From positions 40,922 through 104,921 of the forward strand of contig JAIELQ010000007.1 in assembly GCA_019752815.1 (NCBI GenBank): 64,000 nucleotides of DNA. Reading direction: 5' to 3'. Shown here piece after piece: positions 3,791 to 57,400 of this stretch. Numbering within the stretch: position 1 is the first letter of the stretch; each line of letters starts with the position of its first letter. Under the pieces are notes generated by a model that saw only the letters and a list, made by a program, of their open reading frames with translations, did no database searches and was not told the origin of the DNA. The DNA comes from Patescibacteria group bacterium (lineage in GTDB: Bacteria > Patescibacteriota > Minisyncoccia > Phycocordibacterales > UBA918). A program made the translations under genes and the position numbers.

Positions 3791-3890
3791 AAATAGAGTC
3801 AGTCCTAGGCGCACAAGGAATTTAGGTCGAGGCGTACATCTGTACGATGAGGCATAAATTTCCGCAGTGCAACAACGGAATGAACTATTT
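3791..3890 (-). repeat. Family-B MITE/REP-like element (copy 2, inverted relative to copy 1)
   Basis: The reverse complement reads ttccgttgttgcactgcggaaattt...catcgtacagatgtacgcctc...ccttgtgcgcctaggactgactc, which is collinear with the 14753-14866 copy. Confidence 0.6.
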
Positions 3891-4628: not shown

Positions 4629-4725
4629 CGGGATTTTATGAAATCTTATTACATCATAAAAAGTTGTAACTTGCAAGGTTAATAGCATTAGAATACGCTA
4701 TTTAATTTGCTATACTAGGCGGTAT

Positions 4726-12444: not shown

Positions 12445-12446
12445 CT

Positions 12447-12578: not shown

Positions 12579-12581
12579 CAT

Positions 12582-13815: not shown

Positions 13816-14748
13816 ATGGCGTGGATACTACTGGCGACCCTGGGACAGTTCCTCAATGCTCTGGTGGCGTTTTTGGATAAGTACATAGTTTCTGACGAAG
13901 CGGCCCTGCCGAAGCCGTTTGTGTACGCATTTTATTCGTGCATATTAACCGGCGGTTGGGCAATTATCTATTTCCTCGGTTTTATTCCTGGATTGAGTGA
14001 AATTGGTTTTCCCCATTTTGAAAATGTACAGGCGCCGACTATTCAAGTAGTGGCGATGTCGTTTTTTGCGGCGTATACGTTTTTTATGGCGCTGGTGTCA
14101 ATGTATTCGGCACTGCGTAACGCCGAAGCGGTAAATGTAATGCCAGTAATTGGTGCGGTATCAGCTATTTCATCGTTTGGACTGGTGTATCTATTCCTTG
14201 ATGTAGCATTCTCACCAAATTTTATGTGGGGGGTAGTGGTACTGTCGCTGGGGACGCTTTTGGTAGCACAAACTATTCCAAAAATGGAAGATGTCATCCA
14301 TGTATTTCATAGTGGTATTTTCTTTGCGCTGCACTTTATTACGATGAAGGGGTTGTTCCTTGAGACCAACTTTGATGATGGATTCTTTTGGTCACGTATT
14401 TGTTTTGTATTGTTTGCGCTTTCATTGCTCTTGGTGCCAACCTATTATAAAAAAATTCGGGAACAAACGGGAGCTACTACTAAAAAAACTGGAGTTCTCG
14501 TTATTGCTACTAAAATCTTAGCTGGGGTAGCAGCGTTTATGTTACTCAAAGCGACCGATATGGGAGATGTGGCAGTTGTGCAGGCACTTGATGGCGTAAA
14601 GTTTGTGTTTATTCTTTTGATTACAATCATTTTTGCTTCGCTATTGCCTGACACGGTGGCCGTCCACGAACCAAAACCACGTGAGGTGATGCGACGGGTA
14701 TTGTATGTGATGGTGATTGCAGTAGGATATTTCATTCTCTTCACCTGA
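13816..14748 (+). CDS. Polytopic membrane protein, possibly a DMT/EamA-like transporter
   Basis: About 10 predicted TM segments. Starts 8 nt after the GH1 stop, so it is likely cotranscribed. Confidence 0.4.
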   Translation: MAWILLATLGQFLNALVAFLDKYIVSDEAALPKPFVYAFYSCILTGGWAIIYFLGFIPGLSEIGFPHFENVQAPTIQVVAMSFFAAYTFFMALVSMYSALRNAEAVNVMPVIGAVSAISSFGLVYLFLDVAFSPNFMWGVVVLSLGTLLVAQTIPKMEDVIHVFHSGIFFALHFITMKGLFLETNFDDGFFWSRICFVLFALSLLLVPTYYKKIREQTGATTKKTGVLVIATKILAGVAAFMLLKATDMGDVAVVQALDGVKFVFILLITIIFASLLPDTVAVHEPKPREVMRRVLYVMVIAVGYFILFT

Positions 14749-14752
14749 TAAG

Positions 14753-14866
14753 GCCTGAAAACGGCGTATTTCGTTGTTGCACTGCGTAAAATTTTGTTCA
14801 CCGTACGAAAAGTACGGCTCACGAAAATTTTACTTGTGCGCCTAGAACTACACTCGTTTTAAGGAC
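14753..14866 (+). repeat. Family-B MITE/REP-like element (copy 3)
   Basis: ctgaaaacggcg...cgttgttgcactgcgtaaaatttt...ccgtacgaaaagtacgg...aaaattttacttgtgcgcctagaactacactcgttttaagg. Both the terminal and the internal inverted repeats are present. Confidence 0.65.
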
Positions 14867-14927
14867 TTATCCAAAATTTAAAAAATACTATAAACCAGCC
14901 TGATATAATAATTATTAATAAAGATAT

Positions 14928-22681: not shown

Positions 22682-22708
22682 CTTTAACTTTAAAAAGTGA
22701 TCGATGGA

Positions 22709-22820
22709 CTTTCAGAAATGAGTGCAGTGCTAGGAGTGCAAGAAAATTTTATGGAGACGTACTGCTTGTACGGCGGAATAAAATTTTCGCAGCAACGACA
22801 ACGCAATGTGCCGTTTCTGG
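22709..22820 (-). repeat. Family-B MITE/REP-like element (copy 4, inverted)
   Basis: Nearly identical to the reverse complement of the 47328-47442 copy: ttcagaaatgagtgcagtgctaggagtgcaag...gacgtactgcttgtacggcgg...cgcagcaacgacaacgcaatgtgccgtttctgg. Confidence 0.7.
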
Positions 22821-22829
22821 AAGTTCACG

Positions 22830-39853: not shown

Positions 39854-40294
39854 ATGGCACAAACAAGTATTACGACAATTTATAAAAGTGACACCAGTAA
39901 CACGGGAGCGACCCTCACTCCTTTGTATACCTCTGCGCCAGCAGCGGGCTTTCCGGCACCGGGGGATGATATGGTAGAAAAGTCACTGAATGTTCATGAG
40001 TATCTGGTAAAACATCCGGTATCGACGTTTTTTGTCCGGGTGGAAGGAGATTCGATGGAAGGGGCGGGGATTTTCTCGGGTGATATTTTAGTGGTTGATA
40101 GAAGTGTGGAGGCAAAAGCCGGTCGCATCGTGGTAGCTGCCGTTGGCGGTGGGTTGGTGGTTAAACGCCTCGCCCTGCTCGCGGGGAATATGGTTCTCAT
40201 GTCTGAAAATGAAGCCTATGCACCAATAACAGTGACAGGGGATGAGGAGTGTTTTGTGTGGGGTGTAGTAACCGGCAGCGTCCGCCACTTCTAG
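39854..40294 (+). CDS. umuD: UmuD-like S24 self-cleaving peptidase (LexA C-terminal-domain homologue without an HTH)
   Basis: PAAG|FPAP is an Ala-Gly cleavage-site motif. VRVEGDSMEGAGI carries the Ser nucleophile and LVVKRL the Lys. The protein is 147 aa with no DNA-binding domain. Confidence 0.7.
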   Translation: MAQTSITTIYKSDTSNTGATLTPLYTSAPAAGFPAPGDDMVEKSLNVHEYLVKHPVSTFFVRVEGDSMEGAGIFSGDILVVDRSVEAKAGRIVVAAVGGGLVVKRLALLAGNMVLMSENEAYAPITVTGDEECFVWGVVTGSVRHF

Positions 40295-40477
40295 GAGAAT
40301 CCGAAAAACTACCTCATCTACTGCGTTGCCTGCGTCGGAAAATTTCTCACCGTATATTGAATACGGCTCGCAATTTTTCTCCTTGTCGCCTTGTATCTAA
40401 GGCAGTTTATCGAATTCTCTAATCCAATCACTCTGTTTTTGAAGTTTTCCACCTCCTTACGGATTCTAATTAAAAAA

Positions 40478-42258: not shown

Positions 42259-42984
42259 ATGACACATGAGGATATTTCCACGGAGGCATATGAATGGGTT
42301 AAGGATAATCCAGCAGTCCTGATTGAGGCTATTGCTGGTAGGTATAAAGATTTAGAAGAGGGTCGTGTAGCAGTTTTTATGGCTGGTGCACCAGGCGCTG
42401 GAAAGACCGAATTTTCACGATGTCTTATTCGAGACACGTTCGGTCCAGACACAACACTAATCGTAAGAATTGACCCGGATGAAATTAGGATGCTAATCCC
42501 TACATATATAAAAGGTAAAGCAGAGTTGTTTAATCGAGCAACTACAAAAGGGGTTGAGATACTAGTTGATCATTGCTATGACAGAAATTTAGATAAAAGT
42601 TTCTTGTTGGATGGCACATTAAGTAACTGTGAAGTTGCAAGAAGAAATATCGAAAGAGCTTTAGATCGGGGTAGAAAAGTACTAATCTATTTTGTGTATA
42701 AAGATCCGGTAGTTGCGTGGGATTTTACTCAAAAGAGAGAGAAAATCGAAGGACGTAATATTCCTAAAGAGAGTTTTATTAATCAGTATTTCGGTTCAAT
42801 TGAGACTATTAATCAATTAAAAAAAGAATATGGAAACAGAATACAAATCGATTTAGTGCAGCTTGCTGTGCCAAATTTACAAAAGCCTCTTATTACTGAC
42901 TATAAATTTGAGTTCAATATTAGCAGTGTTGACGGGTATTTAAATACAAGGTATTCTAAAGATACATTAAGTGAACTGCTATGA
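42259..42984 (+). CDS. Zeta-toxin family P-loop kinase (PezT/zeta-like)
   Basis: VFMAGAPGAGKTEF is the Walker A motif. IVRIDPDEIRMLIPTY matches the zeta/PezT GGQSGAGKT...IDGDSFRSQHPHY pattern. Confidence 0.65.
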   Translation: MTHEDISTEAYEWVKDNPAVLIEAIAGRYKDLEEGRVAVFMAGAPGAGKTEFSRCLIRDTFGPDTTLIVRIDPDEIRMLIPTYIKGKAELFNRATTKGVEILVDHCYDRNLDKSFLLDGTLSNCEVARRNIERALDRGRKVLIYFVYKDPVVAWDFTQKREKIEGRNIPKESFINQYFGSIETINQLKKEYGNRIQIDLVQLAVPNLQKPLITDYKFEFNISSVDGYLNTRYSKDTLSELL

Positions 42985-43175
42985 AGTATATCCTTAAATT
43001 TCTTGGAAGAGAGGGAAAAAAACGTTCGGGTATTAAAAGCCCCGTCTACGTCTTTTTTGCAGAAGCGGACGCAACTGTAAAAACAAAAGCCTATAGAAAA
43101 GCACTTCGAAGTGCTTCAGAAGATCAAATGTCTATTTTATCAAAGTATGATAAAGAGTTTGCACAGATGAATTAA
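42981..43175 (+). CDS. Small basic hypothetical protein, translationally coupled (ATGA) to the zeta-like gene
   Basis: 64 aa. The start overlaps the upstream stop, and a terminator follows. Confidence 0.35.
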   Translation: MKYILKFLGREGKKRSGIKSPVYVFFAEADATVKTKAYRKALRSASEDQMSILSKYDKEFAQMN

Positions 43176-43198
43176 AAATCCCTTGAAAGGGATTTTTT
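43174..43198 (+). terminator. Rho-independent terminator
   Basis: aaaaatccc-ttgaaa-gggattttt. Confidence 0.7.
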
Positions 43199-43261
43199 AC
43201 TACGATGCCTTTTGTGGCCGAATAGGGATGACTGCACAATTGTGTATTGTATACTGATTCT

Positions 43262-44515
43262 ATGAACTACATTGGGGTGATTGATTGTAATAATTTTTTT
43301 GTGTCGTGTGAGCGGCTATTTCGGCCGGATTTGGTGGGGAAACCGGTGGTCGTTTTGTCATCAAATGATGGGTGTGTGGTAGCGCGCTCGCAAGAAGTAA
43401 AGGACATGGGGGTCCCGATGGGGGTACCTATCTTTCAGATAAAAGACATGATAAAGGACAAAGGAATTATAACGTTTTCTTCACACTTTGCGCTGTATCG
43501 CGATATTTCCAGTCGGGTTTTTACCGTGGTTAAAACACTTCTGCCCACGCGCGAGATATACTCAATTGATGAAGCGTTCTTTACTATAAGCGCACATTCT
43601 AAAGCGGAGTTAGAGGCGACGTTACGCGCCATGAAAATTGAGATTGAACGGCAGGTGGGTATCCCGGTATCCTTGGCGGTGGCGGCTACCAAAACTCAGG
43701 CTAAATATGCCAATCGGCTGGCGAAGAAATCAGGTGGTGTGACTGTCCTTGATCCGGCAGATTGGGAGGCGCTTACGCCCATGATACCGCTACAGAATAT
43801 TTGGGGAGTGGGCGGGAAGTTGGAGATGCGGTATAAAAACGCCGGACTAGTAACCGTAGCTGATTTGATTGCGTGTCCCAAATCGCGGATTGCCAGTATG
43901 TTTGGGATTGTGGGGGTGCGGCTGCAAGCTGAACTCGCCGGTATGCCGATGTATGCCGTATCGGAAGTGCATGCGCCGCAAAAAAGTATTATGAGTTCTC
44001 GGTCATTTGAAAAGAATGTGACCGAGATAGCGGTGGTAAAAGATGCGGTAGCGTACCACCTGCGCCAAGTGGTAGCCGAGCTACGTCATTTACGTCTCAA
44101 AACCAAGAATCTATCAATATTTTTAGGTACCAGTCGCCACGGTGATTATCTGCTACGTGGCGGTTCACTCGGGGTCGAAAACATGACGCCAACGGATGAC
44201 ATAGTTTTTTTACTGAAGCAGGCGTTTGCCCTGGTTGACAGGCTGTATGATGCGGAAGTGCCGTACAAAAAGGCCGGGGTCTACATCAGTGGTTTTAGTC
44301 CCAAAACGGTCATCCAGCAGTCGTTATTTACTGATACTGACGAAGTAACCTATAGCCCGATCAATGACCTTCTTGATGGTTTTAATGCGCGCTACGGGGC
44401 TGATATGGTAACGATCGGCACGCATACCAAAGAACGGAAATGGCAATCAAAATCAGAACAAAAATCTCCGGCCTATACGACGCGCTGGAGTGATCTCGCG
44501 GTGGTAAAGACATAA
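43262..44515 (+). CDS. umuC: Y-family DNA polymerase (UmuC/DinB-like translesion polymerase)
   Basis: GVIDCNNFFVSCERL matches the Y-family motif I (DxxxFFxxxE). SNDGCVVARS; GIGPV-like HhH region; little-finger domain. Confidence 0.8.
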   Translation: MNYIGVIDCNNFFVSCERLFRPDLVGKPVVVLSSNDGCVVARSQEVKDMGVPMGVPIFQIKDMIKDKGIITFSSHFALYRDISSRVFTVVKTLLPTREIYSIDEAFFTISAHSKAELEATLRAMKIEIERQVGIPVSLAVAATKTQAKYANRLAKKSGGVTVLDPADWEALTPMIPLQNIWGVGGKLEMRYKNAGLVTVADLIACPKSRIASMFGIVGVRLQAELAGMPMYAVSEVHAPQKSIMSSRSFEKNVTEIAVVKDAVAYHLRQVVAELRHLRLKTKNLSIFLGTSRHGDYLLRGGSLGVENMTPTDDIVFLLKQAFALVDRLYDAEVPYKKAGVYISGFSPKTVIQQSLFTDTDEVTYSPINDLLDGFNARYGADMVTIGTHTKERKWQSKSEQKSPAYTTRWSDLAVVKT

Positions 44516-44831
44516 CGAAATGTAGTAATCGACACGTGTACTTGATGTCTTGAAGTAGAAAAATGTTCAATGTCGAAACTAAAACTATATAAATAACCAT
44601 TTGCTATCGGTACTCACCTCAGGACAAAAAGGTTATACACACGGGGTACAGAGACAGGTATCAAGAACATTTATATACTGTTGGTAGATCGATTGCATTA
44701 GGTGCGTACGTACAGGCTGAATTTTTTTCACTAAGTACATACAAGCCGCTCCACAAACATGCAGTCGAGAAGTGTTCATTGCAACGCAAGTTGTGACTAC
44801 ACAAAGTTATTTAATAAAATAAAAAATAAAT

Positions 44832-45965
44832 ATGTTCAAACATTCAACTATTACTGTTGAATCTTTGCACCGAGTGGTCGCGATGCTCGTTGCAACAGCT
44901 GTATTGGCTATGTCGGTTGGGTTCTTCAATAATGCCCAAGCTGCTAACCTTGCAGTGATCAGCAACACTTTATCAGACTCAGATCGAAGTGCGCTCTCGA
45001 ATCATACGATTCAGTTCACGATTCCTACCAGTTCACCTGGTGTACTTGCTACACAAACAATCGTTGTGACATTCCCTACTGGATTCAACATGGGATCAGT
45101 TGCGTTCGGAGACATTGACTTCGCAATTAACGGCGTTGAACAAACTCTTGCAGCAACACAATCAGGTGCTACTTGGGGAGCTACCGTGTCAGGTCAAAAC
45201 CTCACACTTACCTCAGGTACTGGAGTTGTAACTGCTGGACAAGTAGTTCGGATTCGAGTTGGAACAAATGCGGTAACGGGAGGAACTGGTACAAACCGAG
45301 TCACCAATCCTGGTACAACAGACTCATATGAGTTTATAGTTACCGCGGGGGCTGCTGACTCAGGTCGCACTAGAGTCGCAATTCTCGATAACGTAGATGT
45401 TACTGCAATTGTAAATACATCATTCACATTTACTGTTGCCGGACTCGCTACATCAACTGCTGTAAACGGAACTTCAACTACAGGTTCAACTACAGCGACA
45501 GCTATTCCATTCGGAGTACTTACTGCCGGACAAATTAAAACAATGGCACAACGACTTAATGTCACTACAAACGCCCGAAACGGATTCGTAGTAACCGTTG
45601 AGCAAGATCAAAACTTGCAATCATCAACTGGTGCCGACATTGATGGATTTATTGACGGAGCCTACACAAATACTCCAACTTCATGGGTAGCTCCAACTAA
45701 CAACATTGGAAATGAAAACACCTGGGGTCACTGGGGTCTCACGTCTGATGACTCAGACCTAAACTCCAACGAGTTCGGTACAGCACTCTTCGTAGCTGCA
45801 AGTACCACACCACGCCAGATTTTCGCTCACAACGGACCGGCCGATGGTATCGCCAACGATATCGGTTCAACAACTGTAGGGTATCAAATCCAAATCAGTC
45901 CACTCCAGGAAGCGGGAGATGACTACAATACTGTACTTACCTACATCGCAACCCCTACATTTTAG
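44832..45965 (+). CDS. Secreted Thr/Gly-rich surface protein; N-terminal domain paralogous to the dockerin protein at 50042; possible WxL-like C-terminus
   Basis: Signal peptide; ISNTLSDSDRSALSNHTIQFTIP aligns with ISNSGPEQPSNHTLSFTLT of the 50042 protein. The C-terminus carries WGHWGLT and LTYIATP. Confidence 0.45.
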   Translation: MFKHSTITVESLHRVVAMLVATAVLAMSVGFFNNAQAANLAVISNTLSDSDRSALSNHTIQFTIPTSSPGVLATQTIVVTFPTGFNMGSVAFGDIDFAINGVEQTLAATQSGATWGATVSGQNLTLTSGTGVVTAGQVVRIRVGTNAVTGGTGTNRVTNPGTTDSYEFIVTAGAADSGRTRVAILDNVDVTAIVNTSFTFTVAGLATSTAVNGTSTTGSTTATAIPFGVLTAGQIKTMAQRLNVTTNARNGFVVTVEQDQNLQSSTGADIDGFIDGAYTNTPTSWVAPTNNIGNENTWGHWGLTSDDSDLNSNEFGTALFVAASTTPRQIFAHNGPADGIANDIGSTTVGYQIQISPLQEAGDDYNTVLTYIATPTF

Positions 45966-46120
45966 TTCCAAAATTCATTCATTAGCTTCGTTGCCCTCAG
46001 CATTTTAAATCCTCATCGTACAAGAAGTACGACTCGGATCTAAAAGCTTCAGTGCCTCGCTTCTAAATAAATTTGTGAAACTAAAATACTATTCTTAAAA
46101 CGTATCATTAGAGTAGTTGG

Positions 46121-46174
46121 CACGCACAAAACAACAAAACCTCCTCTATGGAGGTTTTGTTGTTTTGTGCGTGA
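46121..46174. terminator. Very long (25-bp stem) perfect hairpin, probable bidirectional terminator
   Basis: gcacgcacaaaacaacaaaacctcc-tcta-ggaggttttgttgttttgtgcgtg. Confidence 0.6.
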
Positions 46175-46256
46175 GGTGATGTTTCTGTTTATAAAATTAC
46201 GAAGGCCGATGATTTTAAATGCTATGATAGATTCATTAATCTTTAAGTTTGTTTGC

Positions 46257-47315
46257 ATGATTCGCACCCTTTTTACTGCTCTGTTGTTTGCTTTTGTTTT
46301 GTTGCCGTCCCTTTCATTTGCGCAAAGTGATGCTGGGATTGGTCTTAAGCCAGCGAACATTGCTGAAAATATGGAGCCGGGTGAAGTGCGTCAATTTACG
46401 GTGCTTGTAGAAAACGTCAGTGGTCAGGATCAAAATTATTATATCTTCAAGCGAGATATTTCTGGAGTGCGAGACGGAGGGGTGCCAATTTTTGCTGATA
46501 ATAATTTGGATACCGGTGGATTTGCGTTAAGTGATTGGATACAACTTGAATCAGACAGACTCGAAGTAAAAGCTGGTGAGGAACGTGCCATGTCATTTAT
46601 TATGTCAGTGCCGCAAGATGCATCACCGTGTGATCACTTTGGCGGGATTTTTGTCTCGGCTGAACCCCCAGAATTAGAAGCGAGTGGTGCTGCTATCGGC
46701 TACCAAGTTGCCAACATTGTTAGTATTAGAGTAGCGGGTGAGTGTATTGAAAAAGCCCAGATTAGACAATTCTCAACCGACAATTATTTCTACGGTTCTT
46801 CAAATGTAGATTTTAATCTTAAGTTTGAAAATAGTGGTAACACACTCTTGCGACCAACTGGTCCCCTGACCATCACCAACATGTTTGGAAAACAGGTTGC
46901 CAATTTGACCTTTAACGAAGAGCAGGCAGGAGTATTTCCAGGTGTGACACGTGAGTTCTTGTTTAGTTGGACGAGTGACCAAACCGGCTTTGGACGGTAT
47001 GAAGCGATGGTGAGCCCGAGTTATGGAGAGGAAGGTTTCAAGCAAACCGCCTTTAGTACCGCAACGTTCTGGATCCTGCCGATGAATATTATTCTGCCGG
47101 CCGCAGGAGTGTTAGCCGCACTGCTTTTGATTGCCTATATCAGTATTCGTGTGTATGTGAAGCGACAGCTGGCGTACTACGGAGCAACCTCAGGAACTCG
47201 AAAACTAGTTCGTCGACACACCAACAATAGTTCAACACCGCTCTTGTTAATTCTAGTAGTGATGGTGTCGGTGACGGCTTTGTTCCTGCTCATCCTCCTA
47301 GCCCTATTCGCCTAG
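46257..47315 (+). CDS. DUF916/DUF3324-like (CscA-like) cell-surface protein with a C-terminal TM anchor
   Basis: Signal peptide MIRTLFTALLFAFVLLPSLSFAQS; two beta-sandwich-like domains (GIGLKPANIAENMEPGEVRQFTVLVENVSGQDQNYYIF...); C-terminal TM segment followed by a basic stretch. Confidence 0.45.
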   Translation: MIRTLFTALLFAFVLLPSLSFAQSDAGIGLKPANIAENMEPGEVRQFTVLVENVSGQDQNYYIFKRDISGVRDGGVPIFADNNLDTGGFALSDWIQLESDRLEVKAGEERAMSFIMSVPQDASPCDHFGGIFVSAEPPELEASGAAIGYQVANIVSIRVAGECIEKAQIRQFSTDNYFYGSSNVDFNLKFENSGNTLLRPTGPLTITNMFGKQVANLTFNEEQAGVFPGVTREFLFSWTSDQTGFGRYEAMVSPSYGEEGFKQTAFSTATFWILPMNIILPAAGVLAALLLIAYISIRVYVKRQLAYYGATSGTRKLVRRHTNNSSTPLLLILVVMVSVTALFLLILLALFA

Positions 47316-47327
47316 ACCTCCAGAAAT

Positions 47328-47442
47328 GGCACATTGCGTTGTCGCTGCCGCGGTACTTTTTCTTCCGCCGTACAGCGGTACGTCTACAGGAAAAGTCCTT
47401 GCGACTCCTAGCACTGCACTCATTTCTGAAGGTCTAGTTTGG
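47328..47442 (+). repeat. Family-B MITE/REP-like element (copy 5) with terminal inverted repeats cagaaatg/catttctg
   Basis: ccagaaatggcacattgcgttgtcgctgc...ccgtacagcggtacg...cttgcgactcctagcactgcactcatttctgaagg. Confidence 0.7.
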
Positions 47443-47491
47443 GTGAATTAACCTGAGTAAGTTACTTATGAAAGATGTATAATACATATAT

Positions 47492-47917
47492 ATGATGGAA
47501 TTTACTTTGTATCACAAATTGTTGCGCGTAAGTTCGGTAGTGTTGGCCGTGGCTCTGTTATTTCAGGCCGGGCTCGTTTCTACTACTACGGCTATCATGG
47601 CTTCGCAGACCCAGTCGTACCTCGCTAATGCTGTTGGAGTATTTGTAGGTGTCGAACCAACAGAATTAAATACTATTACTGCGGGACTCACCGAGCAAAA
47701 GTTGGCGCTTGATGCACGAGAGAATGAATTACGTCAGCGGGAAATTGCCGTTGGGATTGACCAAGGTGGAGCCACGCGTGATATGACAACCTTTGTCATG
47801 GGGCTGGTGTTATTCATTGTGGTATTACTTCTTGTTCTCAATTACTCCCTTGATTATTTGCGGTATCGTGAAATGAAAATGAGGCAGGTTGCGGGTCAGA
47901 CAATGGTGCGAGGATAG
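47492..47917 (+). CDS. Small membrane protein with a coiled-coil segment
   Basis: 141 aa; N-terminal and C-terminal TM helices. Confidence 0.4.
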   Translation: MMEFTLYHKLLRVSSVVLAVALLFQAGLVSTTTAIMASQTQSYLANAVGVFVGVEPTELNTITAGLTEQKLALDARENELRQREIAVGIDQGGATRDMTTFVMGLVLFIVVLLLVLNYSLDYLRYREMKMRQVAGQTMVRG

Positions 47918-47982
47918 GCTGGTTTTAATGGCGGGAAAGTGGTTAGTTATGTGCGGATATGGTACCGTACGGCTGTATTAAT

Positions 47983-49509
47983 ATGGATAAGCAAAAAACT
48001 CTACAAAATATTCTAGTGCCTGCCACTCCGGCAGCATTTTTGTGGTTTATTACTAAACCATACATGTGGGGAGCCGCATTTACGGTACTTTTTACTATTG
48101 GATCTGCCGCAATGTCACAATCGCTAACACTATTTTTTAAATGGATTGTGGAAGCAATTGAAGCGCAAGATGTGAATTCTGCGTTGTGGTACGGTCTTAT
48201 GTTTCCAGTAGCGGTTTTTTTAGCACAAGTTTTAATGCGTCTGAGTAGTGTTATAGCGGCAATATATTGGTTTCCTTCCTCACGAAAATTTGCTAATGAC
48301 ACGTTGGTAAGCTATACCTTAAACCATAGTCATACGTACTTCTCAAACCGATTTAGTGGTTCATTGTTAACAAAGGTGAACAATGTTATCGGAGCGGTTG
48401 AGAGTTTGCTACACGATATTGTTTGGTCATATTTAAGTCTGGCTGTTTCACTCCTGCTGTCGTTTTATTTTATATGGACAGTTGACGTCATTGCAGCAAG
48501 TATTTTTGTTGTACTTATATTGTTCATAGTATTGGTAAATAAGATAATGTTACCAAAAAAGCGAATGTTATCTCGACAAACTGCTGCTGCCGGAAGTAAA
48601 ATGCGCGGGGCAATAGTGGATGTATTCGGAAATATGTCAGCTGTTAGACAATATTCTGCTCAAAGTGAAGAACGCAGTCAGTTGGCAAAGCTCAGTAACG
48701 ATTGGACAGTCCTTCAAAGAAAGAACTGGCTCTATACAGACCTTACCCAAGCTATCAATGCTGTTATTCTTTTTATCTGTGCAGGTACGATGTTTTACTG
48801 GTTGGTTTTGCGTTGGGAAGGAAATGAAATTACCTCCGCAGAATTCATTTTTGTACTTGCAATTATTGCTCAATTAACCGGGAATTTAATTTTTATTGGG
48901 AGAATGATGGTAAATGCTGCTCGTGTGGCTGGTGAAATGGAAGAGGGGTTAAAGGAACTTATTGTTCCGTATGAAATTACTGATTCAGAAGCAGCGTCAA
49001 AACTTATTGTGCAAAATGGCAGAATAAACGTACGCGACGTTTCGTTTGAGTATGAAAATAATAAAGTATTTACTGATTTTAATCTCAACATTGAATCAGG
49101 GCAACGGGTGGGTCTGGTCGGCGCTTCGGGGGCGGGGAAGTCGACATTTGTGTCGCTCTTATTACGGCAACATGATGTAACGACGGGGGCCATTATGATT
49201 GATGGGCAAAATATTGCTGAAGTGACCCAGGACTCGTTACGCAATGCCATTGCAGTCGTGCCGCAAGAGCCAGCGTTATTCCACCGTTCAATTCGAGAAA
49301 ATATAGCCTACGGGAAACCAGACGCTACTCAAGAAGAGATAGAAGCGGTGGCGCGTAAGGCCCAGGCACATGATTTTATTGTCACGTTACCTCAAGGGTA
49401 CGATACGTTGGTGGGTGAGCGGGGAGTAAAGTTATCAGGTGGTCAAAAAACAACGAGTAGCAATTGCGCGAGCAATGCTAAAAGATGCTCCGATTCTGGT
49501 ATTGGATGA
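47983..49509 (+). CDS. ABC exporter (MsbA-like fused permease-ATPase), N-terminal 5/6 of a gene split by a frameshift
   Basis: Six-TM permease domain followed by an NBD: Walker [13 protein letters not shown] and signature LSGGQK. The frame then breaks in an A6 run at 49445-49450. Confidence 0.8.
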
Positions 49510-49756
49510 AGCTACTTCAGCGCTTGATAGTGAAAGTGAGGTTGAAATCCAAAAGGCGCTTCATATATTAATGAATGGCAAAACGGTAATTGCAGTAGCT
49601 CATCGCCTGTCGACATTGCGGGAGATGGATCGAATTATTGTGTTGGAAAATGGGAAAATTATCGAAGACGGCACCCACGAGACCTTAAAAGATGCTGGTG
49701 GTACGTATTCCAAGCTATGGAGTCATCAGGCAGGCGGGTTTATCAATGAAAAATGA
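49439..49756 (+). CDS. ABC exporter, C-terminal NBD fragment (Walker B / D-loop / H-loop)
   Basis: [26 protein letters not shown], then AHRLST. This continues the LSGGQK of the upstream ORF in another frame. Confidence 0.75.
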
Positions 49757-49762
49757 GCTACA

Positions 49763-49844
49763 GAGTGAGAAAGTCTGCGAGACTTTCGTAAGAGGTTGCC
49801 AGCTTTTTTTGTAAAAAACGATAACCTGAACCGTTTCTGTAAGA
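49763..49844 (+). repeat. Family-A structured intergenic repeat (copy A2)
   Basis: gtgagaaagtctgcgagactttcgtaagaggttgccagctttttttgtaaaaaacgataacc...gtttctgtaagaag. Confidence 0.7.
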
Positions 49845-49903
49845 AGTAGCGACAATGGCGAATTTTGTTCCGAGTTTACCCCTTCATAGGGTAAACTCCT
49901 GGA
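49845..49903 (+). repeat. M2 hairpin module (copy a), followed by a degenerate partial copy at about 49953-49974
   Basis: tagcgacaatggcgaattttgttccgagtttaccccttcatagggtaaactcctggaac. Confidence 0.7.
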
Positions 49904-50041
49904 ACTTGTACTTGTGCTGATTTTATACCACTTCACCATCTAACTGAACTATTAACGACAATGGTGAATTATGTTCCAAAACTGCATATATATGTACACA
50001 AGAATGAAAAATTGAGGTCAGTACACGGTACAATATAGGTA

Positions 50042-51955
50042 ATGAGCGCTTTTCCGTATGCGTGGTTTCTCAGAGCCAGTCTAGTGTTGGTTGTTATTTT
50101 TTGTGCGATTATGGTAGTGCCTGATTTGTCGTGGGCCCGCAATATCCAGGAGTACAAAAACACGATTTCTAATTCAGGTCCGGAGCAGCCGAGTAACCAC
50201 ACGTTATCGTTTACGTTAACTACAGCAGTTAGCCCTGGTGCCTATATGGAATTCATTCCGCCTGCCGGATTTGAAACATTAAATTCACCTAATTTTAGCG
50301 AACGGAATGTTGAGTTGATTATAAACGGTGTGTCTCGTTCGGCTGGTGCAGTTCAAACTGCTACGGACGATATGGTAGAAATTTTCCCTGGTGCACCAGG
50401 GATGGTACGGTACACATTAAACACCAGTACCGGTATTTCATCGGGGTCTTCAATACAGTTTAAAGTTGGAAATCATACAACTGATGCGGTACCACTCGTG
50501 TTCACGTTTTCGCCAGGTTTTGGAACTTCATCATCCCCGCTTGATATTAAGCCTATAAAAAATAGTGCAGATACTGGTACACATTCAGTTGATTTTAAAA
50601 TCTATGATGGAGGAGTGGTGGCTGATGCTGGTTTTGTAATTGCGATTGTTGATGGCGTGGGTGTGGGGCCGGCAGATACCACTGAGGAAGTACCGCCACA
50701 ACGTTTTAATGGAGCACCGGCAAATTTTGTTGGTGGTACGACCCAGTCAGTTGAAGTTTCTTTAGAGACCGATGAGTTTGCTGTTTGTAAATTTTCTTCT
50801 TCAACCGGTGTTGACTACAGCGCGATGACGAGTACGTTTACCAATACCGGTACGATTTTCCATACGCGAATTGTTCCAGTTAATCCACAAACTACCTACA
50901 GCTTTAATGTGCGCTGTATTGACGATGAAGGAAACTTTAACATTGACGATTATCTTATTGAATTTTTGGTTGGTGCTATTCCAACCGGTACACCAACAAC
51001 GACTGGTTCCACTACCGCTGCCGGATCGGGTTCGGGTACTGGTACCGGCGGTTCTGGTTCAGGGTCGGGTTCTGGTAATACTACAAGTGGATCAAACGGT
51101 TCAGGTGGAACACCAGGTAGTCAAACTGGTAGTGGCGGTACGGGCGGCGGTGGCGGTGGCGGTTCTGGTGGCGGTTCGGGCGGCGGTGGCGGCGGTGGTT
51201 TTGAAAGTACCGATGGCCCGTACCGGAGTGGAGATGGACAGGTAACTATTACCGGATTTACAGCACCCCGCAGTGCAGTAGCTTTTTTGGTTGACGGAAA
51301 AATTGCTAAAACCGCTACTGCTGGTGGTAACGGTGAATATACGGTTGTGCTTGATTTAATAGCGCGCGGTGCGTACACGTTCGGGGTGTATTCAACTGAT
51401 GCTGCCCGAGTTAAAACATCTACGTTTAGTACTTCGTTTACGGTTACCGGTGCTCGGGCATCAAACCTCTCGAACATTATGATACCGCCTTCAATTCTTG
51501 TTAGTCCCGATCCGGCGACACCTGGTTCTCCGATTACTATTTCTGGGTACACACTCCCTAATGCTACGGTCACTCTTGAAAACGAAAAAGACGGTAGTGC
51601 TGCGTCACGAAAAGTATTTACCGGGACCTCTAATGCTAGTGGTGCTTATAGTATTTCTGTTGACAGTAATGGTTTTACAAATGGCACTTACAAGGTACGC
51701 GCAAAAGCTGTGCAGGCGTCGGGGCTACAGACAAACTTTTCCAACTACACACTGTATGGTGTAGGCGAAGCTGCTAACCGAGCATTAAACACTGATCTTA
51801 ATCGAGATGGAAAAGTGAACCTTGTCGACTTTTCGATTTTGCTTTTCTGGTGGGGAACAGCTGGCGGAGATTCAAACCCTCCAGCAGATATTAACAGTGA
51901 TACGAGAGTTAACTTGACGGACTTTTCTATCCTGCTCTTTAACTGGACCGGATAA
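50042..51955 (+). CDS. Secreted multidomain protein with a Gly/Ser/Thr-rich linker, Ig-like repeats and a C-terminal type-I dockerin repeat pair
   Basis: Signal peptide/TM segment. The N-terminal domain is shared with the 44832 protein. The (GSGT)n linker is low-complexity. DLNRDGKVNLVDFSILLF and DINSDTRVNLTDFSILLF are dockerin DxNxDGxVNxxD Ca-binding repeats. Confidence 0.7.
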   Translation: MSAFPYAWFLRASLVLVVIFCAIMVVPDLSWARNIQEYKNTISNSGPEQPSNHTLSFTLTTAVSPGAYMEFIPPAGFETLNSPNFSERNVELIINGVSRSAGAVQTATDDMVEIFPGAPGMVRYTLNTSTGISSGSSIQFKVGNHTTDAVPLVFTFSPGFGTSSSPLDIKPIKNSADTGTHSVDFKIYDGGVVADAGFVIAIVDGVGVGPADTTEEVPPQRFNGAPANFVGGTTQSVEVSLETDEFAVCKFSSSTGVDYSAMTSTFTNTGTIFHTRIVPVNPQTTYSFNVRCIDDEGNFNIDDYLIEFLVGAIPTGTPTTTGSTTAAGSGSGTGTGGSGSGSGSGNTTSGSNGSGGTPGSQTGSGGTGGGGGGGSGGGSGGGGGGGFESTDGPYRSGDGQVTITGFTAPRSAVAFLVDGKIAKTATAGGNGEYTVVLDLIARGAYTFGVYSTDAARVKTSTFSTSFTVTGARASNLSNIMIPPSILVSPDPATPGSPITISGYTLPNATVTLENEKDGSAASRKVFTGTSNASGAYSISVDSNGFTNGTYKVRAKAVQASGLQTNFSNYTLYGVGEAANRALNTDLNRDGKVNLVDFSILLFWWGTAGGDSNPPADINSDTRVNLTDFSILLFNWTG

Positions 51956-51973
51956 AAAATGAGCCACAGAGCG

Positions 51974-52023
51974 TAGCGACAATGGCGAATTTTGTTCCGA
52001 GTTTGCTCCTTTCCTAGAGCAAA
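51974..52023 (+). repeat. M2 hairpin module (copy b) with compensatory stem changes relative to copy a
   Basis: tagcgacaatggcgaattttgttccgagtttgctcctttcctagagcaaactcctggaac. The stem acccc/ggggt of copy a is replaced by gctc/gagc here. Confidence 0.7.
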
Positions 52024-52071
52024 CTCCTGGAACCTGTACTCGTTGAGATGATATCTATTGATGTTTGAATT

Positions 52072-52157
52072 TTTCCTTGACCTTCTTACAGAAGCTGTGC
52101 ACTCATTGGATATTTTTACAAAATCTCTCAATGAGTCTTGCGAAGTGACATCGAGTC
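52072..52157 (-). repeat. Family-A structured intergenic repeat (copy A3, inverted)
   Basis: The reverse complement reads gtgagaagtgactcgatgtcacttcgcaagactcattgagagattttgtaaaaatatccaatgagtgcacagcttctgtaagaagg. Confidence 0.7.
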
Positions 52158-52324
52158 ACTTCTCACCTCGAATAGCACTCGTTTTAGAAACAATTACTAA
52201 CAAATTTAAACTGAGCTAAATATTTAAAACTAAAGAAGCGAAAAGATAAATTTTGTTTAGTTAAGTCTAAAGTTGTGGGTAACAGCAAGGTCATACATAT
52301 ATATGTACTATAATAATTAAAAGT

Positions 52325-52789
52325 ATGTCATTTTTACAACGTCTCAAAGGTCGTGGCGTTAAGTCAGACGAGGCACTACAATCGAGTGAAGAAGAAACGG
52401 CAGTTGATAAAGTTGCCCAGCTCGATGTTGATGTGTTCCAAACTGAACGCACGATTATTATATACGCACAAGCGGCTGGAGCCGATATGAATGACGTGCA
52501 CGTGTCTATTGAGGGCGATGCTGACATTGTGTTAATCGAAGGGCGTCGCATCCGTCCAGAGTTCATTGTCTTCCCGAAGAGTAAACCGCATGGTGCCTAT
52601 TTTACAGAGGAATGTATCTGGGGAGATTTTTATCGTCGCATTATTTTGCCGGAGAGTGTGGAAATTGAAAAAGCTGAAGCTAAAATTAAAAATGGAGTAT
52701 TGATTTTGATTTTACCGTTACTCAAACCAGAAGAGAAAGAAAAAGTTAAATTAAAAATAACTCCCGATCGTAAGCGATCACGATTGTAG
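52325..52789 (+). CDS. Hsp20/alpha-crystallin family small heat-shock protein
   Basis: VDVFQTERTIIIYAQAAG...FYRRIILPESVEIEKAEAKIKNGVLILILP matches the ACD-domain pattern. Confidence 0.8.
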   Translation: MSFLQRLKGRGVKSDEALQSSEEETAVDKVAQLDVDVFQTERTIIIYAQAAGADMNDVHVSIEGDADIVLIEGRRIRPEFIVFPKSKPHGAYFTEECIWGDFYRRIILPESVEIEKAEAKIKNGVLILILPLLKPEEKEKVKLKITPDRKRSRL

Positions 52790-52799
52790 ATGTATCGGT

Positions 52800-54374
52800 A
52801 TGCAGCAAAATCAAATTCGTAAAAATGTTCCTATGTTCTCAATCTCATACAAAGTAATAACAAAATTCCTATTCGCACTTGTGTTTGGTTTTTTTGCGTT
52901 TGCCACACCCTCATTTGCCGCCGATCTTTTGATGTCACCGGCGACTGGTAATTTTTCAGTTGGTCAAACATTTACCGTTAATGTACTCGTGTCACCAGCC
53001 GGTTCAAGTGTAAATGCTGTGGAGGCAGGACTAAAGTTTAACCCTGCAGTTTTGTCGGTAGTGAGTTTTAGCAAGGCCTCAACATTTTCTTTGTGGACGA
53101 CCGAACCAACATTTTCTAATACCGCCGGAACATTTACGTTTGGTGGTGGTAGTCCGGCTCCATTTACTGCTCAGTCAAATATTTTAACGATTACGTTTCG
53201 AACGATTGCTGCCGGGTCAGGATCTCTCACCGTTGCGAACGCTTCTATCTTGGCTGCAGACGGGCGCGGAACAGACGTATATAAAAATGGTTCACCGGGA
53301 ACATATACTGTAGCTGCCGGCACAGTTCCTCCACCACCAACCCCGACACCAACCCCGACACCAACTCCTACTCCGGCCACCCCAACCCCAGCTGCTGATG
53401 AAGACGATGAAGAAGCTATTGTGTTCGGAGATCCACCACGTGCTCCAGAAGTAGGTTCACCATCGTTCTTGGATCCAGAGTTGTGGTATAAAAATACCGA
53501 AGGAGCATTCTCCTGGACACTACCATTTGACGTAAACGTAGTGGCAGTCGAACTTTCAACGAGTTCAGAAAACCAGCCTGACCTTAACAAAGATGCGGTC
53601 TACGATCCACCAATAGATGAGTTCAAAGTAAGTAGAGAGAATCTGATTGATGGTATACAGTACTTGAGTATTAAGTACAAAAATCAGGTAGGTTGGGGAG
53701 CAGTATTAAACCGAAAGATTCAAATCGATACCACTGCACCGGAAGCTTTCGTGATTGATGTTCGCGCTGCTAACTCTACTACTGGCTTCCCGCAATTAAA
53801 CTTCGAAGCCAAAGATGCTACGTCTGGTATTGATTACTATGAAATGACAATTGCCGATAAAGAACCATTCAAAGTTACCCCAGATGAAGCAAAGATTGGA
53901 TACCTACTTAAAGAACTTGAAGATGGAACCTATACCATTAAAGTAGTTGCCTACGACAAAGCTGGTAATTCACGTGAAAGTACCGTAGCAGTACTTATTA
54001 CCGCCGGGTGGATCAAGCCAGCAGAAGTGATTGAAGAAAAGACCCTGTTTGACTTCCTCACAGCAACAAACCTATTTATTCTGTTCCTCCTCACTGTTAT
54101 CGGAATGATGCTTGGATATCTCTGGTACGATCGCAAACAAAATAAAATTAAAGAAGAGAAATTGCGTCGAGAAACAAGAGAGATTCAAGATCAAATGGAA
54201 AAAATCTTCTCTGCCTTGCGCGATGAAATCTATGATCAGATCAACTTGATAACGAAGAGGCCACGTCTATCGCAGAAAGAAAAAGAGGCAGTGGAGGGAC
54301 TCAACCAAGCACTCGAAGTATCAGAGACCTTGATTGAAAAAGAAATCAATGATGTAAAAACAATTTTGAAGTAA
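52800..54374 (+). CDS. Membrane-anchored cohesin-like domain protein: cohesin-like beta-sandwich, PT linker, second beta-sandwich, TM helix, cytoplasmic coiled-coil tail
   Basis: Signal peptide; SPATGNFSVGQTFTVNVLVSPAGSSVNAVEAGLKFNPAVLSVVSF...GSGSLTVANASI (cohesin-like); (PT)n linker; TM LFILFLLTVIGMMLGYLWY; KEEKLRRE coiled coil. Confidence 0.55.
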   Translation: MQQNQIRKNVPMFSISYKVITKFLFALVFGFFAFATPSFAADLLMSPATGNFSVGQTFTVNVLVSPAGSSVNAVEAGLKFNPAVLSVVSFSKASTFSLWTTEPTFSNTAGTFTFGGGSPAPFTAQSNILTITFRTIAAGSGSLTVANASILAADGRGTDVYKNGSPGTYTVAAGTVPPPPTPTPTPTPTPTPATPTPAADEDDEEAIVFGDPPRAPEVGSPSFLDPELWYKNTEGAFSWTLPFDVNVVAVELSTSSENQPDLNKDAVYDPPIDEFKVSRENLIDGIQYLSIKYKNQVGWGAVLNRKIQIDTTAPEAFVIDVRAANSTTGFPQLNFEAKDATSGIDYYEMTIADKEPFKVTPDEAKIGYLLKELEDGTYTIKVVAYDKAGNSRESTVAVLITAGWIKPAEVIEEKTLFDFLTATNLFILFLLTVIGMMLGYLWYDRKQNKIKEEKLRRETREIQDQMEKIFSALRDEIYDQINLITKRPRLSQKEKEAVEGLNQALEVSETLIEKEINDVKTILK

Positions 54375-54406
54375 ATTTGCTCATCAATCCCCAGAGTTTG
54401 ATGATA

Positions 54407-54440
54407 TAACGCCCAGGCTTAACTGCCTGGGCGTTATACT
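54407..54440 (+). terminator. Rho-independent terminator
   Basis: tataacgcccagg-cttaact-gcctgggcgttata. Confidence 0.7.
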
Positions 54441-54482
54441 ATAATGAGCCCCGTTTTCTATGTGCGTGGGTTTTAAAAAGTC

Positions 54483-57400
54483 GTGATACGTCCGTTTAAG
54501 TTACTAAAGAAATCGACCTTTGGAGCACTACTAACAATTACTGTTATTAGTGGTTTTGTCGTGTACGGAGCTTATATTGATCGGACAGTGTACACCACCG
54601 AACAACTAGTCATTATCCCTGGTAAAGTAACGTCAGATTCGTGGCTTGGTTTGGAATCAGTGTTAGTGCAAGATATTTCTGAATACTCTCTCTATCAAGA
54701 CTTTACACAAAAAAATTCAGCCTATATTTCAGAACTAGGATTGTTTTCAGCACAAGAGAGTGAGGATGCTCCAACACCGGATGAGCCAAATGAAGTGTCT
54801 ATTGATGGCGACTCTGCTTCAAGCAGTGACGAAGTTCCAAGTACTGACAGTGAGTCAGGTGGTTCAGAGAATGGTGACAATGAGTCGTCTGAGACTGATG
54901 CACCTACTGCTGAAACATCACAACCAGAACCAGAGTCTGAACCTGAACCACAACCAGAACCATCTTCTGAATCTGAGTCAGTATCATCAATTACAAATCC
55001 AGGAGATCCAGTATGGGGTGTATTTACGAAAACCAATAACCGCTTTTTGTTGGCGCAGGCGATTGTGACTGAAGAAGCTTCTGAACCTGAACCTGCTTCT
55101 TCACCAGAACCTGAACCAGCGGTCGTGACTACAGAAGAGTCAGGTACCGAAGAGACTGCTGTAGTGGACAATGTGCCAGTAGCTGAAGAGACTCTTGAAA
55201 CTGCTGTCACTGAAGAATCAGTGGAGACTACACCGGAAGGTAGTGGGGCAACTAATGAAGGTGAAGAAGCAGAAATTCCTGTCAGCGAATCAATTGAGGG
55301 TCAATCTGAGGCAGAGCCTGCAACAGAAGAAGATACAAGTAACGATTACGTGATGGCACCGTGCGATCCTGCAAGTGGATGTGCAACCCATAGTATGTTG
55401 TTCTCTGATTTCTTGATGCCGGATTTTGACGGTGGTACTGTTCTAGATTCAATTCAACTGCGGTTATCACTGGCCGCACAAACAAAACAAAATCGTGGAG
55501 AAGGGCCACAACGTTTTTTGGTTGAGTACACATACGACACTAGTACAACGTCTACCGACTGGATTACTGCTTCTGTACTAGATATTGATGATGAAATCAG
55601 TAACAGTATTAACGGCGGATATTACCTGCTCTCATTACAGCCGCCAAAAACTGCAGGTGAGATTGCTAACTTACAAATTAAAGTTTCCTATCAAGGGAAT
55701 GTGAGCGATTTGGAAACAGCCTACGTTGAAGGCATGTGGCTCGAAGTTACTTCAGGTAAGTTTTTTGAAGAGGGAGCTGGTGAAGCGTATAGTGATGAAG
55801 TAACCTACGGTCGTGATTTGTTGGCGCCAGAGCTTAACACATTAAACAACGCTGATCTCGATCCAACATTGGGGACGTTGCCACAATTTACACTCTCCTA
55901 TGATCCGCAACAAGGATTCTTTAACCGTATTTTTAGAACACTATTTTCAGAGAACACATTTGTTGTCGAGCGTATCAATTTAACAGATAGTAATGGTGAT
56001 GCTATTGAAGTGCCATTTGGAATTGAGTATCACGACAATGAAACATGGACTATGAAGGCGCAACAAATGCCTCATAAATTACGACCGGGTAAATACCTAG
56101 TGACTGTTGATATTCTAGAAAATGAAGAACGATATACTGATACGTTTGAATTTTACTGGGGGGTATTGGCAGTCAATACCAAGAAAAGTATGTATTTCCC
56201 CAATGAGGAAGTCCAACTCAATCTCGCAGCCTTAACTGACAAGGGCGATACTATTTGTAACGCTAATTTGGAACTTAAGATTATCGATCCCAAAGGAACT
56301 ATTACTGAAGTACCTGTCAATCAGTCAGGTGCATGTGGGCCAAATAACGTCACCGATATCCCAGACTACATTGCTGAATTCTCCAATACTGGAGAATGGG
56401 GTGCATACACTATTCAATTGCAGCATAAAAATGCCTCAGGAGAAGTTGTGCATAAAATTTCTGATAGTTTTGAAGTTCGTGATTACATTCCATATGATAT
56501 TGAGCGCACTGCACCAACACGTATTTATCCACCTGCCCCCTACGATGTAACGCTAAAAGTAAAAGCATATCGTGATTTTACGGGTGATGTTACCGAGCGT
56601 GTCCCGCGTGGGTTTGTAATTGAAGGTCTTGAAGGAGCTTTGGTCAGTACCTTGCCGGAGTACACATTAATTACCTGGCCGGATGTGACAATGATGGAAG
56701 GTGATGAGCGAACCTTCTCATATAATTTTGATGCCCCTGACATCAGTCCGTACATGTATCTCCTGGGGCCACTTGATATGGATGGGTTTAGTGAATTGCG
56801 TCAATGGCAGGTGGCTTCTGATGCGTTAAATAACATCGGCTGGTTTACCGGTACACGCACGGTAGCTAGTTCCAGTTTAAATACCGCTCCGAGCCCAATG
56901 CAGTGGTCAACCAGTTCAATTGATAATTATTACTACACTCACTCTACCTCTTCTGATTCGCAACGAGTGACTTTACGACAAAGTGGTGATTATTTAGTGT
57001 CAGTTAACCTCCCGCAACAGCGAGCCGATATTAATGTTAGTCGCACTCGGGCTGCTATTGAAGTTCGAAAAAACGGTGTTGCCGTTCCGGAAGGTTTAGG
57101 TCGCAGTGGTTACATTACGGGAGGTAACGGCGCAGTGCACTCGGAGTCATCCTCCAACGTTTCGTTTTTGATGACGGGAGTTACCGCTAACGATTATATT
57201 GAGATATTTGTTGAGAATCTCACTACAATTGATGCGGGGGATGTGATTAATGTCAGTGGATTAGCTTCAATGTATATTGAGTATTTGCGACCTACGGAAA
57301 CAGTGTTTGCCGCTACCACTACCAGAACAACAAACTCTACAAATTTTAACCAAGTTACCGCTTTTCCTCTTGAGTGGATTGAAACACGTCAAGATGCTGG

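Follow-up and report, generated by a model that had tools for sequence, protein, structure and literature searches.

Several kinds of structured intergenic repeat have been described in bacteria. In proteobacteria, the RAYT-mobilised REP/BIME and REPIN sequences are short extragenic palindromic modules that lie among housekeeping genes and form mosaics. The ERIC/IRU and Correia (NEMIS) elements are rods of ~100–150 nt that resemble miniature inverted-repeat transposable elements (MITEs). The Rickettsia palindromic elements (RPEs) are selfish-looking palindromes of a reduced genome that enter genes and RNA genes and are read through in frame inside intact proteins. Integrons carry attC sites (e.g., the Vibrio VCRs), structured sites of ~60–140 nt directly after open reading frames (ORFs), whose folding bottom strand is antisense to the ORF, and the ends of IS200/IS605 elements and PATEs are defined by hairpins. 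Patescibacteria genomes are very small and are thought to carry few repeats. Here we describe a modular family of intergenic repeats in 64 kb of contig JAIELQ010000007.1 from a Patescibacteria group bacterium (the window), centred on the spacers around a dockerin-protein gene (50042–51955, plus strand). The family resembles REP/REPIN, ERIC/Correia and the Rickettsia palindromic elements in kind and is a member of none of them. As far as we can tell, it is an apparently undescribed intergenic family of the Patescibacteria (Kaiserbacteria and relatives).

The family comprises plain B rods, large units and solo A modules. At the dockerin gene, which is ancestral and syntenic, two independent composite intergenic elements flank the gene, each beginning where the gene on its left has its stop codon. 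We think it probable that these are two composite elements of one modular family in which the three-hairpin module A is inserted or exchanged at the DNA level, while the rods are strand-specific. For comparison, the surroundings of copies found elsewhere were taken as loci of 8–14 kb, which we refer to by L numbers; L038 is a 43.7-kb groundwater contig that is 77–82% identical to window 42947–55095.

The left element (49750–49912) consists of a tail module X (49750–49767, plus strand) and the module M2a (49846–49912, plus strand), with the A copy A2 (49762–49848, plus strand; covariance-model scores of 79.6 and 91.2 bits) inserted exactly between them. X includes the TGA stop (49754–49756) of the ABC-transporter gene, which ends at 49756. 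M2a has a conserved 5′ part, AGCGACAATGGCGAATTTTG, and a 15-bp hairpin at 49867–49905; a 26-nt partial M2 at 49952–49977 (plus strand) has the 5′ part only, without the hairpin. The right element is a complete large unit on the minus strand (51956–52190) that ends at the dockerin stop codon. Large units are ~235 nt long. The 5′ arm of a B rod comes first, followed by A, a linker, a hairpin module and finally a tail; on the minus strand of the window, the hairpin module corresponds to M2 and the tail to X. In the right element, the 5′ arm TTTCTAAAACGAGTGCTATTCGAG (52190–52167) is followed by A3 (52169–52080; 98.7 and 67.7 bits), which has the usual place and orientation of A in a large unit, by the linker (52079–52041), by the M2b module (52040–51973; on the plus strand 51973–52040, with its hairpin at 51994–52033) and by the X tail (51973–51956). 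The module order matches that of L016 3711–3950, L015, L029 7020–7247 and L005. The ends of large units pair weakly, over ~8–10 nt (AAAAYGAG/CTCRTTTT).

Relative to M2 and X, A2 is oriented opposite to the A of large units, and in L032 and L041 an A copy lies at the identical X/M2 insertion point and in the same orientation as A2. The empty form, in which X is joined directly to M2, occurs at at least eight loci, including the right side of the dockerin gene (51956–51990) as well as L029, L005, L015 and L016.

This layout had been proposed in a sequence-only reading of the locus. Reading 49300–52500 together with a repeat scan recovered the same order (A2, M2a, partial M2, gene, M2b, A3) to within ~10 nt; A2 was confirmed on the plus strand, and A3, which the covariance model places at 52080–52169, had been set ~10 nt too far left. 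The string said to follow both stop codons, AAAATGAGCYACAGAGYG, is indeed present after each of them, as AAAATGAGCTACAGAGTG beginning at 49750 and AAAATGAGCCACAGAGCG at 51956. The hairpins quoted there were right overall and needed small corrections: the supposedly invariant core tttttgtaaaaa reads ttttgtaaaaa in A3, and the M2 stem of M2a is ACCC/GGGT inside a 15-bp stem, not acccc..ggggt alone. The motifs are not expected by chance, as TTCTGTAAGAAG has three matches in the window vs. 0.22 expected from shuffles, and the M2 5′ motif three vs. 0. The covariance-model search finds exactly three A copies in the window. The third, A1, is a solo module that sits far from the dockerin locus, at 12478–12568 (plus strand), in the leader of a GH1 gene.

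The A module is ~88 nt long and has three hairpins, with the conserved single-stranded motifs GTGAGAA, CGCAAGA and TGnACAG as joints and a conserved loop, CTGTAAG, in the third hairpin (H3). Its stems split into several sub-types. The module looks built of three [G-Y-R-AGA + hairpin] units; its ends, GTGAGAAG and GTAAGAAG, are near-direct repeats, and tandem A copies in L034 overlap by AGAAG. When 36 copies are aligned under the three-hairpin model, 96.6% of 859 cells fall in standard pairs, and 22 of the 25 pairs are altered on both sides. The covariation score is 0.507, vs. at most 0.10 with partners slid by 1–3 columns, and none of 500 shuffles reaches the observed values. Fitting to the model makes the paired share of this alignment look somewhat better than it is; the effect is large all the same, and plain MAFFT alignments show it too. 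For the M2 hairpin (12 copies, plain MAFFT alignment) 95.4% of the cells are paired and 8 of 15 pairs are altered on both sides. The compensatory base changes first noticed in the window copies are therefore borne out in both modules. A coding role was considered for A and B and rejected: A copies other than A1 contain stops and indels that are not multiples of three, and some B copies contain an ATG without a conserved frame.

B is an imperfect rod of ~125 nt. Its outer stem is variable, and its conserved parts are a 5′ segment, AGAAAYGAGTGCAGTGCTAGG, an apical hairpin, GAGCCGTAC...GTACGGTGA, and a 3′ segment, CAACGACAACGCAATGTGCC. The model search counted seven plain rods in the window, two of them diverged. 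They lie at 3012–3136 (minus strand; model R3, 116.4 bits), abutting the stop of gene 1701–3005; at 3780–3904 (plus; R3, 90.9 bits), abutting the stop of the minus-strand gene 3891–4688; at 14745–14870 (minus); at 22705–22830 (plus), abutting the stop of a minus-strand RNase J gene; at 47310–47436 (minus), abutting the stop of gene 46167–47315; and, in diverged form, at 40293–40418 (minus; R3, 62.9 bits) and 45958–46085 (minus). Of the 45 pairs in B rods, 31 show compensatory change, and orthologous rods differ on both sides in 7–17 of the 45 pairs with pairing kept.

The rods have a strand. Across 29 copies they contain 118 G·U pairs (9.6%) vs. 15 A·C (1.2%), and RNAalifold, run on plain MAFFT alignments, assigns the B-sense strand 45 pairs and −49.6 kcal/mol, vs. 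36 pairs and −30.1 kcal/mol for its complement. The strand that folds is antisense to the abutted gene. For 23 of the 25 elements its 3′ end lies within a few nucleotides of an opposite-strand stop codon, whether the gene pair is tandem or convergent. The sole exception is the orthologous pair L005/L011. The shared string after the two stop codons at the dockerin locus is a local instance of this rule. Like ERIC and Correia elements, B rods are imperfect palindromes in transcribed spacers near gene ends, with several copies per 64 kb and nested insertions. They differ from those elements in their fixed orientation and nucleotide-level proximity to stop codons, in an outer stem that covaries instead of forming a conserved terminal repeat, in having no TA or other target duplication, and in a strand-specific, G·U-rich fold.

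The position of the rods directly after stop codons, with the folding strand antisense to the ORF and structure conserved more than sequence, is shared with attC sites. One could therefore read rods and modules as sites of single-stranded-DNA recombination or transposition (attC-, IS200/IS605- or REP/RAYT-like), with the recombinase encoded elsewhere; the lack of target duplications and of terminal inverted repeats, the inverted doublets and the insertion polymorphisms agree with this. We find the idea quite unlikely. The flanking genes are housekeeping genes that are conserved and syntenic between relatives, not cassette arrays, and no integrase was found in the window; neither the window ORFs nor 149 ORFs adjoining elements in other loci include an integrase or a Y1 transposase. 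There is no conserved GTTRRRY/RYYYAAC (R′/R″) core, and the corresponding positions covary. Conservation is also the reverse of that in attC, with the apex of B conserved and its base variable. An identification of B as attC proper was rejected on its stem base, CAGAAAYGAG ... CRTTTCTG, in which the AAC/GTT positions covary (C-G to T-A).

The A stems behave differently from the rods. They contain 824 Watson-Crick pairs, 6 G·U (0.7%) and 9 A·C in 859 cells. Covariation is found for A, M2 and B, and a G·U asymmetry for B and not for A (6 vs. 9). Among 22 A copies between co-directional ORFs, 9 are sense and 13 antisense. Taking genes and rods together as the reference, A is antisense in A2 of the window and in L002, L038, L032 and L041. 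A structure without strand asymmetry points to a DNA-level palindrome or to a hairpin that works in either orientation, and does not demonstrate an RNA. The sequence-only reading had called the repeats a functional RNA element rather than neutral debris. The structure is kept, and debris can be set aside; that what is conserved is an RNA structure is plausible for the host rods but unproven for A and M2.

The functional-RNA reading can nevertheless be put in a stronger form, namely that A and M2 are functional-RNA domains and that the large unit is a ~235-nt structured RNA selected at the RNA level. The strong covariation, the conserved single-stranded joints and H3 loop, and the greater conservation of the elements than of neighbouring genes speak for it, as does the orientation of A with the RNA-like folding rod strand in at least eight independent large units. 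A 241-nt stretch of the right large unit folds with a z of −4.2; the other strand reaches −3.8, so that the energies do not discriminate between the strands. Considering also that G·U pairs in A stems are no more frequent than A·C, that A is found in both orientations relative to genes and to the rod, and that no Rfam family matches, we regard this reading as possible, if doubtful.

A further alternative would make the elements ordinary intrinsic terminators, or palindromes that arose by chance in AT-rich spacers. They do lie in spacers after genes, and the minus strand of the X tail carries a small, weak hairpin with a run of T behind it, up to the stop codon. On the other hand, no T-tracts accompany the hairpins of A, M2 and B, and the scan for intrinsic terminators found none at A or M2 on the gene strand. 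Real terminators near B are separate hairpins. With motifs far above shuffle expectation and a family that recurs across assemblies with conserved non-stem motifs, we consider this explanation highly improbable. No promoter consensus was found inside A, and the window contains no tRNA or tmRNA.

Comparison of orthologous sites suggests that the modules move or are exchanged. The diverged rod at 45958–46085 is an empty site whose orthologue in L038 carries an A module at the apex. The L002 orthologue of rod 14745–14870 carries two A copies, inverted, one per arm. A whole large unit follows the YdjM stop directly in L016 and is absent at that site in the window and in L002. At the A1 site, the window and L016 have the same subtype, with A1 97.8% identical between them and the flanking genes 74.8% identical, while L002 has a different subtype (72%). 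This conservation of A1 relative to its flanks argues against neutral debris. The A copies of large units at non-orthologous sites are 90–94% identical across genomes, A3 is 91–93% identical to large-unit A copies at other loci of L015, L016 and L017, and A or large-unit copies are 90–98% identical across genomes whose genes are ~75–82% identical.

Between filled and empty sites 1–4 nt are replaced, with zero duplication. Two hallmarks of a classical MITE were not seen: no fixed-length short target duplication was found at the filled sites, and A has no terminal inverted repeats, its ends (GTGAGAA... and ...CTGTAAGAAG) being near-direct and not inverted. REP and REPIN sequences likewise lack terminal inverted repeats and target duplications, and they too form inverted doublets, like the A pair of L002. 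Their unit, however, is a single hairpin of ~35 nt with a GTAG head, whereas A has a conserved GTGAGAA head and three hairpins over ~88 nt with conserved linkers. There is moreover no sequence similarity, the host phylum is another, and no RAYT-like (Y1 transposase) gene was seen in the 64 kb or the loci of 8–14 kb. IS200/IS605 ends and PATEs share with the present elements the hairpin-defined ends, strand specificity, and lack of inverted terminal repeats and target duplication; unlike them, the present elements have no TnpA or TnpB nearby and no definable conserved short target, and A is not strand-biased. The neighbours of the elements are housekeeping genes, e.g., those for MreB, FtsA, SecDF and tRNA synthetases.

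Since A2 (plus) and A3 (minus) stand inverted around a single gene, and the X-M2 repeats stand in direct orientation around the same gene, the 2.4-kb unit had been likened to a MITE-mobilised cassette, with the inverted A copies as ends that mobilise the dockerin gene. We consider this reading hardly tenable. The gene product (~637 aa, with Pfam domains Big_6 and Dockerin_1) belongs to a conserved family that is widespread in the clade: 701 homologues were found at E below 1e-20, many of them full-length (~636 aa) and 56–87% identical, and including an identical protein, NCBI K2P47_03055, on a 190-kb contig of a Patescibacteria group bacterium. In L038 a dockerin orthologue lies between the same ABC and HSP20 genes, and the order ABC, dockerin, HSP20, cohesin-type protein is found in L042/L043 (87% protein identity), L044 (82%) and L045 (73%). 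The gene and its neighbours thus stay in place in five relatives, at 73–87% protein identity, without these flanking A or M2 copies. A, M2 and X were not found in the ABC-dockerin spacer of L038, L042, L044 and L045; this spacer is 81 nt long in L045 and holds unrelated hairpins in the other three. The dockerin-HSP20 spacer contains a large unit in the window, a plain B rod in each of L038, L042 and L044, and neither of the two in L045. A2 and A3 are only 51% identical and belong to different composite elements, A lacks terminal inverted repeats and its sites lack target duplications, and A3 is internal to a complete large unit that is found elsewhere without this gene (L016, L015, L029). We conclude that the dockerin gene is a conserved resident with variable spacer contents, and that the elements settled in its spacers and do not carry the gene.

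The only direct repeats at filled sites are duplicated gene ends of 26–45 nt, which border A in four independent loci. In the window, a copy of the first 12 GH1 codons (12446–12481, plus strand; repeat scan, 97%) ends exactly at A1, and its twin (12581–12616, plus strand) begins the real GH1 gene; the same duplication is present in L002 and L016. In L020 the repeat covers 26 nt from the 5′ portion of a tRNA gene, and in L034 it is a gene start. The fourth case, in L031, is the 3′ part of a tRNA-Ser with A in the variable arm, adjoining an intact tRNA. A is oriented like the gene in the GH1, L020 and L034 duplications, and the duplicated fragment ends exactly at the A 5′ end in the GH1 and L020 tRNA cases. 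These sites (a tRNA-Ser fragment, a tRNA 5′ fragment and a GH1 gene start) recall the RPEs, with the difference that the gene end interrupted here is a duplicate, next to which the gene itself stands intact. The duplications could reflect either rare insertions with very long staggered cuts that survive only when the gene is restored, or hairpins that provoke local duplication. A study of introns in the Patescibacteria reports none of group II in the phylum (PMC13011429), which argues against reverse transcription by an intron enzyme. The elements themselves were also considered as group I or II introns or ribozymes and rejected, being too small and without an Rfam signal.

Two of these loci have further features. 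The GH1-start copy and A1 together form a 43-codon upstream ORF (window 12447–12578) whose stop lies 3 nt before the real ATG; the in-frame arrangement is kept in L002 and L016, i.e., in three genomes in all. This upstream ORF may couple translation through the hairpins. At L020 ~200–330 (minus strand), a long insert interrupts a tRNA gene past its anticodon loop, and ARAGORN does not call the gene; in front of it lies the 26-nt duplicate of its 5′ end, joined to an A module. Group I introns have been reported in Patescibacteria tRNA genes (PMC13011429), and the L020 insert is consistent with them.

The distribution of the family was assessed by a pattern scan (TTTTGTAAAAA-N(6–24)-TTCTGTAAGAAG; A3 carries TTTTGTAAAAA) of one genome per species. 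The scan gave 22 loci, of which 12 are true A copies. Their hosts are Patescibacteria metagenome-assembled genomes (MAGs) labelled Kaiserbacteria, “Patescibacteria group” or Saccharibacteria, with the sole exception of one contig filed under a proteobacterial MAG. Metagenomes yielded 19 more loci, with A copies in 12, and the viral contigs scanned yielded zero A copies. Over all DNA examined, the covariance model counts 36 A copies in at least 12 assemblies; for M2, 12 copies were available. Further copies therefore exist in the genomes and metagenomes in which the sequence-only reading had suggested looking for them, and covariation is strong with the larger set. Rfam 15 gave zero matches at the gathering threshold over the whole window, and only chance-level matches (E at least 2) when ranked by E-value for 47200–52400 and the large unit of L005. 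A literature search by topic and by sequence strings returned no description of the family.

Some copies outside the window stand out. At L007 3400–3620, a tRNA-Pro flanked by an inverted 22-nt repeat has a partial duplicate of its 5′ half in front of it and two A copies behind it; this is the contig filed under a proteobacterial MAG, and it is probably mis-binned. At L030 276–573, three tandem A-like units with diverged apical parts and compensated H3 stems (CTCCTGTAAGGAG, ATTCTGTAAGAAT) lie upstream of a tRNA-Gln. An A copy located after a dockerin-type gene end in L006 is unusable because an N run (2186–2285) covers its 5′ half.

Several points weigh against the reading of A as a DNA-level module and of the rods as strand-specific elements. 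Stems with Watson-Crick pairs only are also expected of an RNA hairpin module that works in both orientations, and the conservation of A1 fits selection as well as recent conversion. Neither an excision footprint nor a clean target motif can be defined from the filled and empty sites. No transposase, integrase, HUH nuclease or reverse transcriptase was found among the 40 window ORFs, and no protein family recurs among the 149 neighbouring ORFs in other loci. No promoter is evident upstream of the B 5′ ends, and several B rods have a bidirectional terminator upstream of the 5′ end. Two alignments (A7 and A11) are model-fitted, and their percentages of paired cells are inflated by this. With several copies being orthologues of one another, there are fewer independent events than copies. 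Finally, the source material consists of MAGs and metagenome fragments.

With these points in mind, the most likely account of A is a non-autonomous module whose insertion or exchange takes place at the DNA level and duplicates no target site. The hairpin-rich sites that it would enter are the X/M2 junction, tRNA arms and, in B rods, either of two preferred positions. The strictly Watson-Crick stems would be accounted for if the hairpins themselves are recognised, or are needed on either strand. The rods that host A appear to fold on one strand, with RNA-like G·U pairs, antisense to the gene at whose stop they sit. In our working model, the rods would form in transcripts that are about to enter a gene from its 3′ end, candidate sources being the next promoter, by divergent transcription, or a convergent gene, by read-through, and would stop or process these incoming transcripts. 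The small hairpin and U run of the minus-strand X, ending at the stop codon, are in support of this model. In its boldest version, B rods and large units would be a new class of strand-specific RNA, set almost to the nucleotide at the stop codons of housekeeping genes but on the antisense strand, that acts by termination or processing as one-way barriers against transcription entering from the 3′ side, and A a mobile three-hairpin colonist of rods and other hairpins that makes no short target duplication and can duplicate gene ends of 26–45 nt. Taken as a whole, we consider this version rather unlikely.

The surroundings of the dockerin gene have other features of interest. Perfect-hairpin families fill the ABC-dockerin spacer at L038 5120–5400, L042 620–900 and L044 2300–2480 (e.g., TAATCATACGATTAATCGTATGATTA and CAATGAAACCTTTCATTTGAATGGAAGGTTTCATTGAG), and there seems to be a turnover of several hairpin families at these places. 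A palindromic motif, CATATATATG(TAC), occurs just upstream of −10-like boxes at 49985–49999, 52293–52310 and 47470–47490, preceding the dockerin gene, the HSP20 gene and the gene at 47492. The motif is conserved in L038, L042, L044 and L045; it probably serves as a promoter or operator, perhaps in both directions. Within the dockerin gene, a tandem 12-nt GGC/GGT repeat (window 51132–51203) encodes a Gly/Ser-rich linker. A cohesin-domain protein (52800–54374) is encoded two genes away, and the two proteins are a possible cohesin-dockerin surface pair in a Patescibacteria genome. The ABC gene (47959–49756) is split by one extra A in the run GGTCAAAAAACAACGA (49439–49450), which changes the frame at about residue 499 of the intact 600-aa L044 orthologue. 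Compared with L044, the N-terminal 500 aa are 46% identical and the last 100 aa 95%, and the split gene could be a pseudogene, a sequencing error or a mosaic gene.

A family this dense, with ~9 rod-type elements and 3 A modules in the 64-kb window and members in several lineages, would show that the short spacers of these genomes are actively remodelled. The natural pairs of filled and empty sites provide material for a mechanism of hairpin-dependent transposition or conversion without target duplication. The nesting of A, which has only Watson-Crick pairs and occurs in either orientation, in B, which is G·U-rich and folds on one strand, antisense to the gene, offers a test case for separating selection at the DNA level from selection at the RNA level. 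For annotation, the elements explain many “conserved structured” intergenic matches, short spurious ORFs and duplicated gene starts in these genomes.

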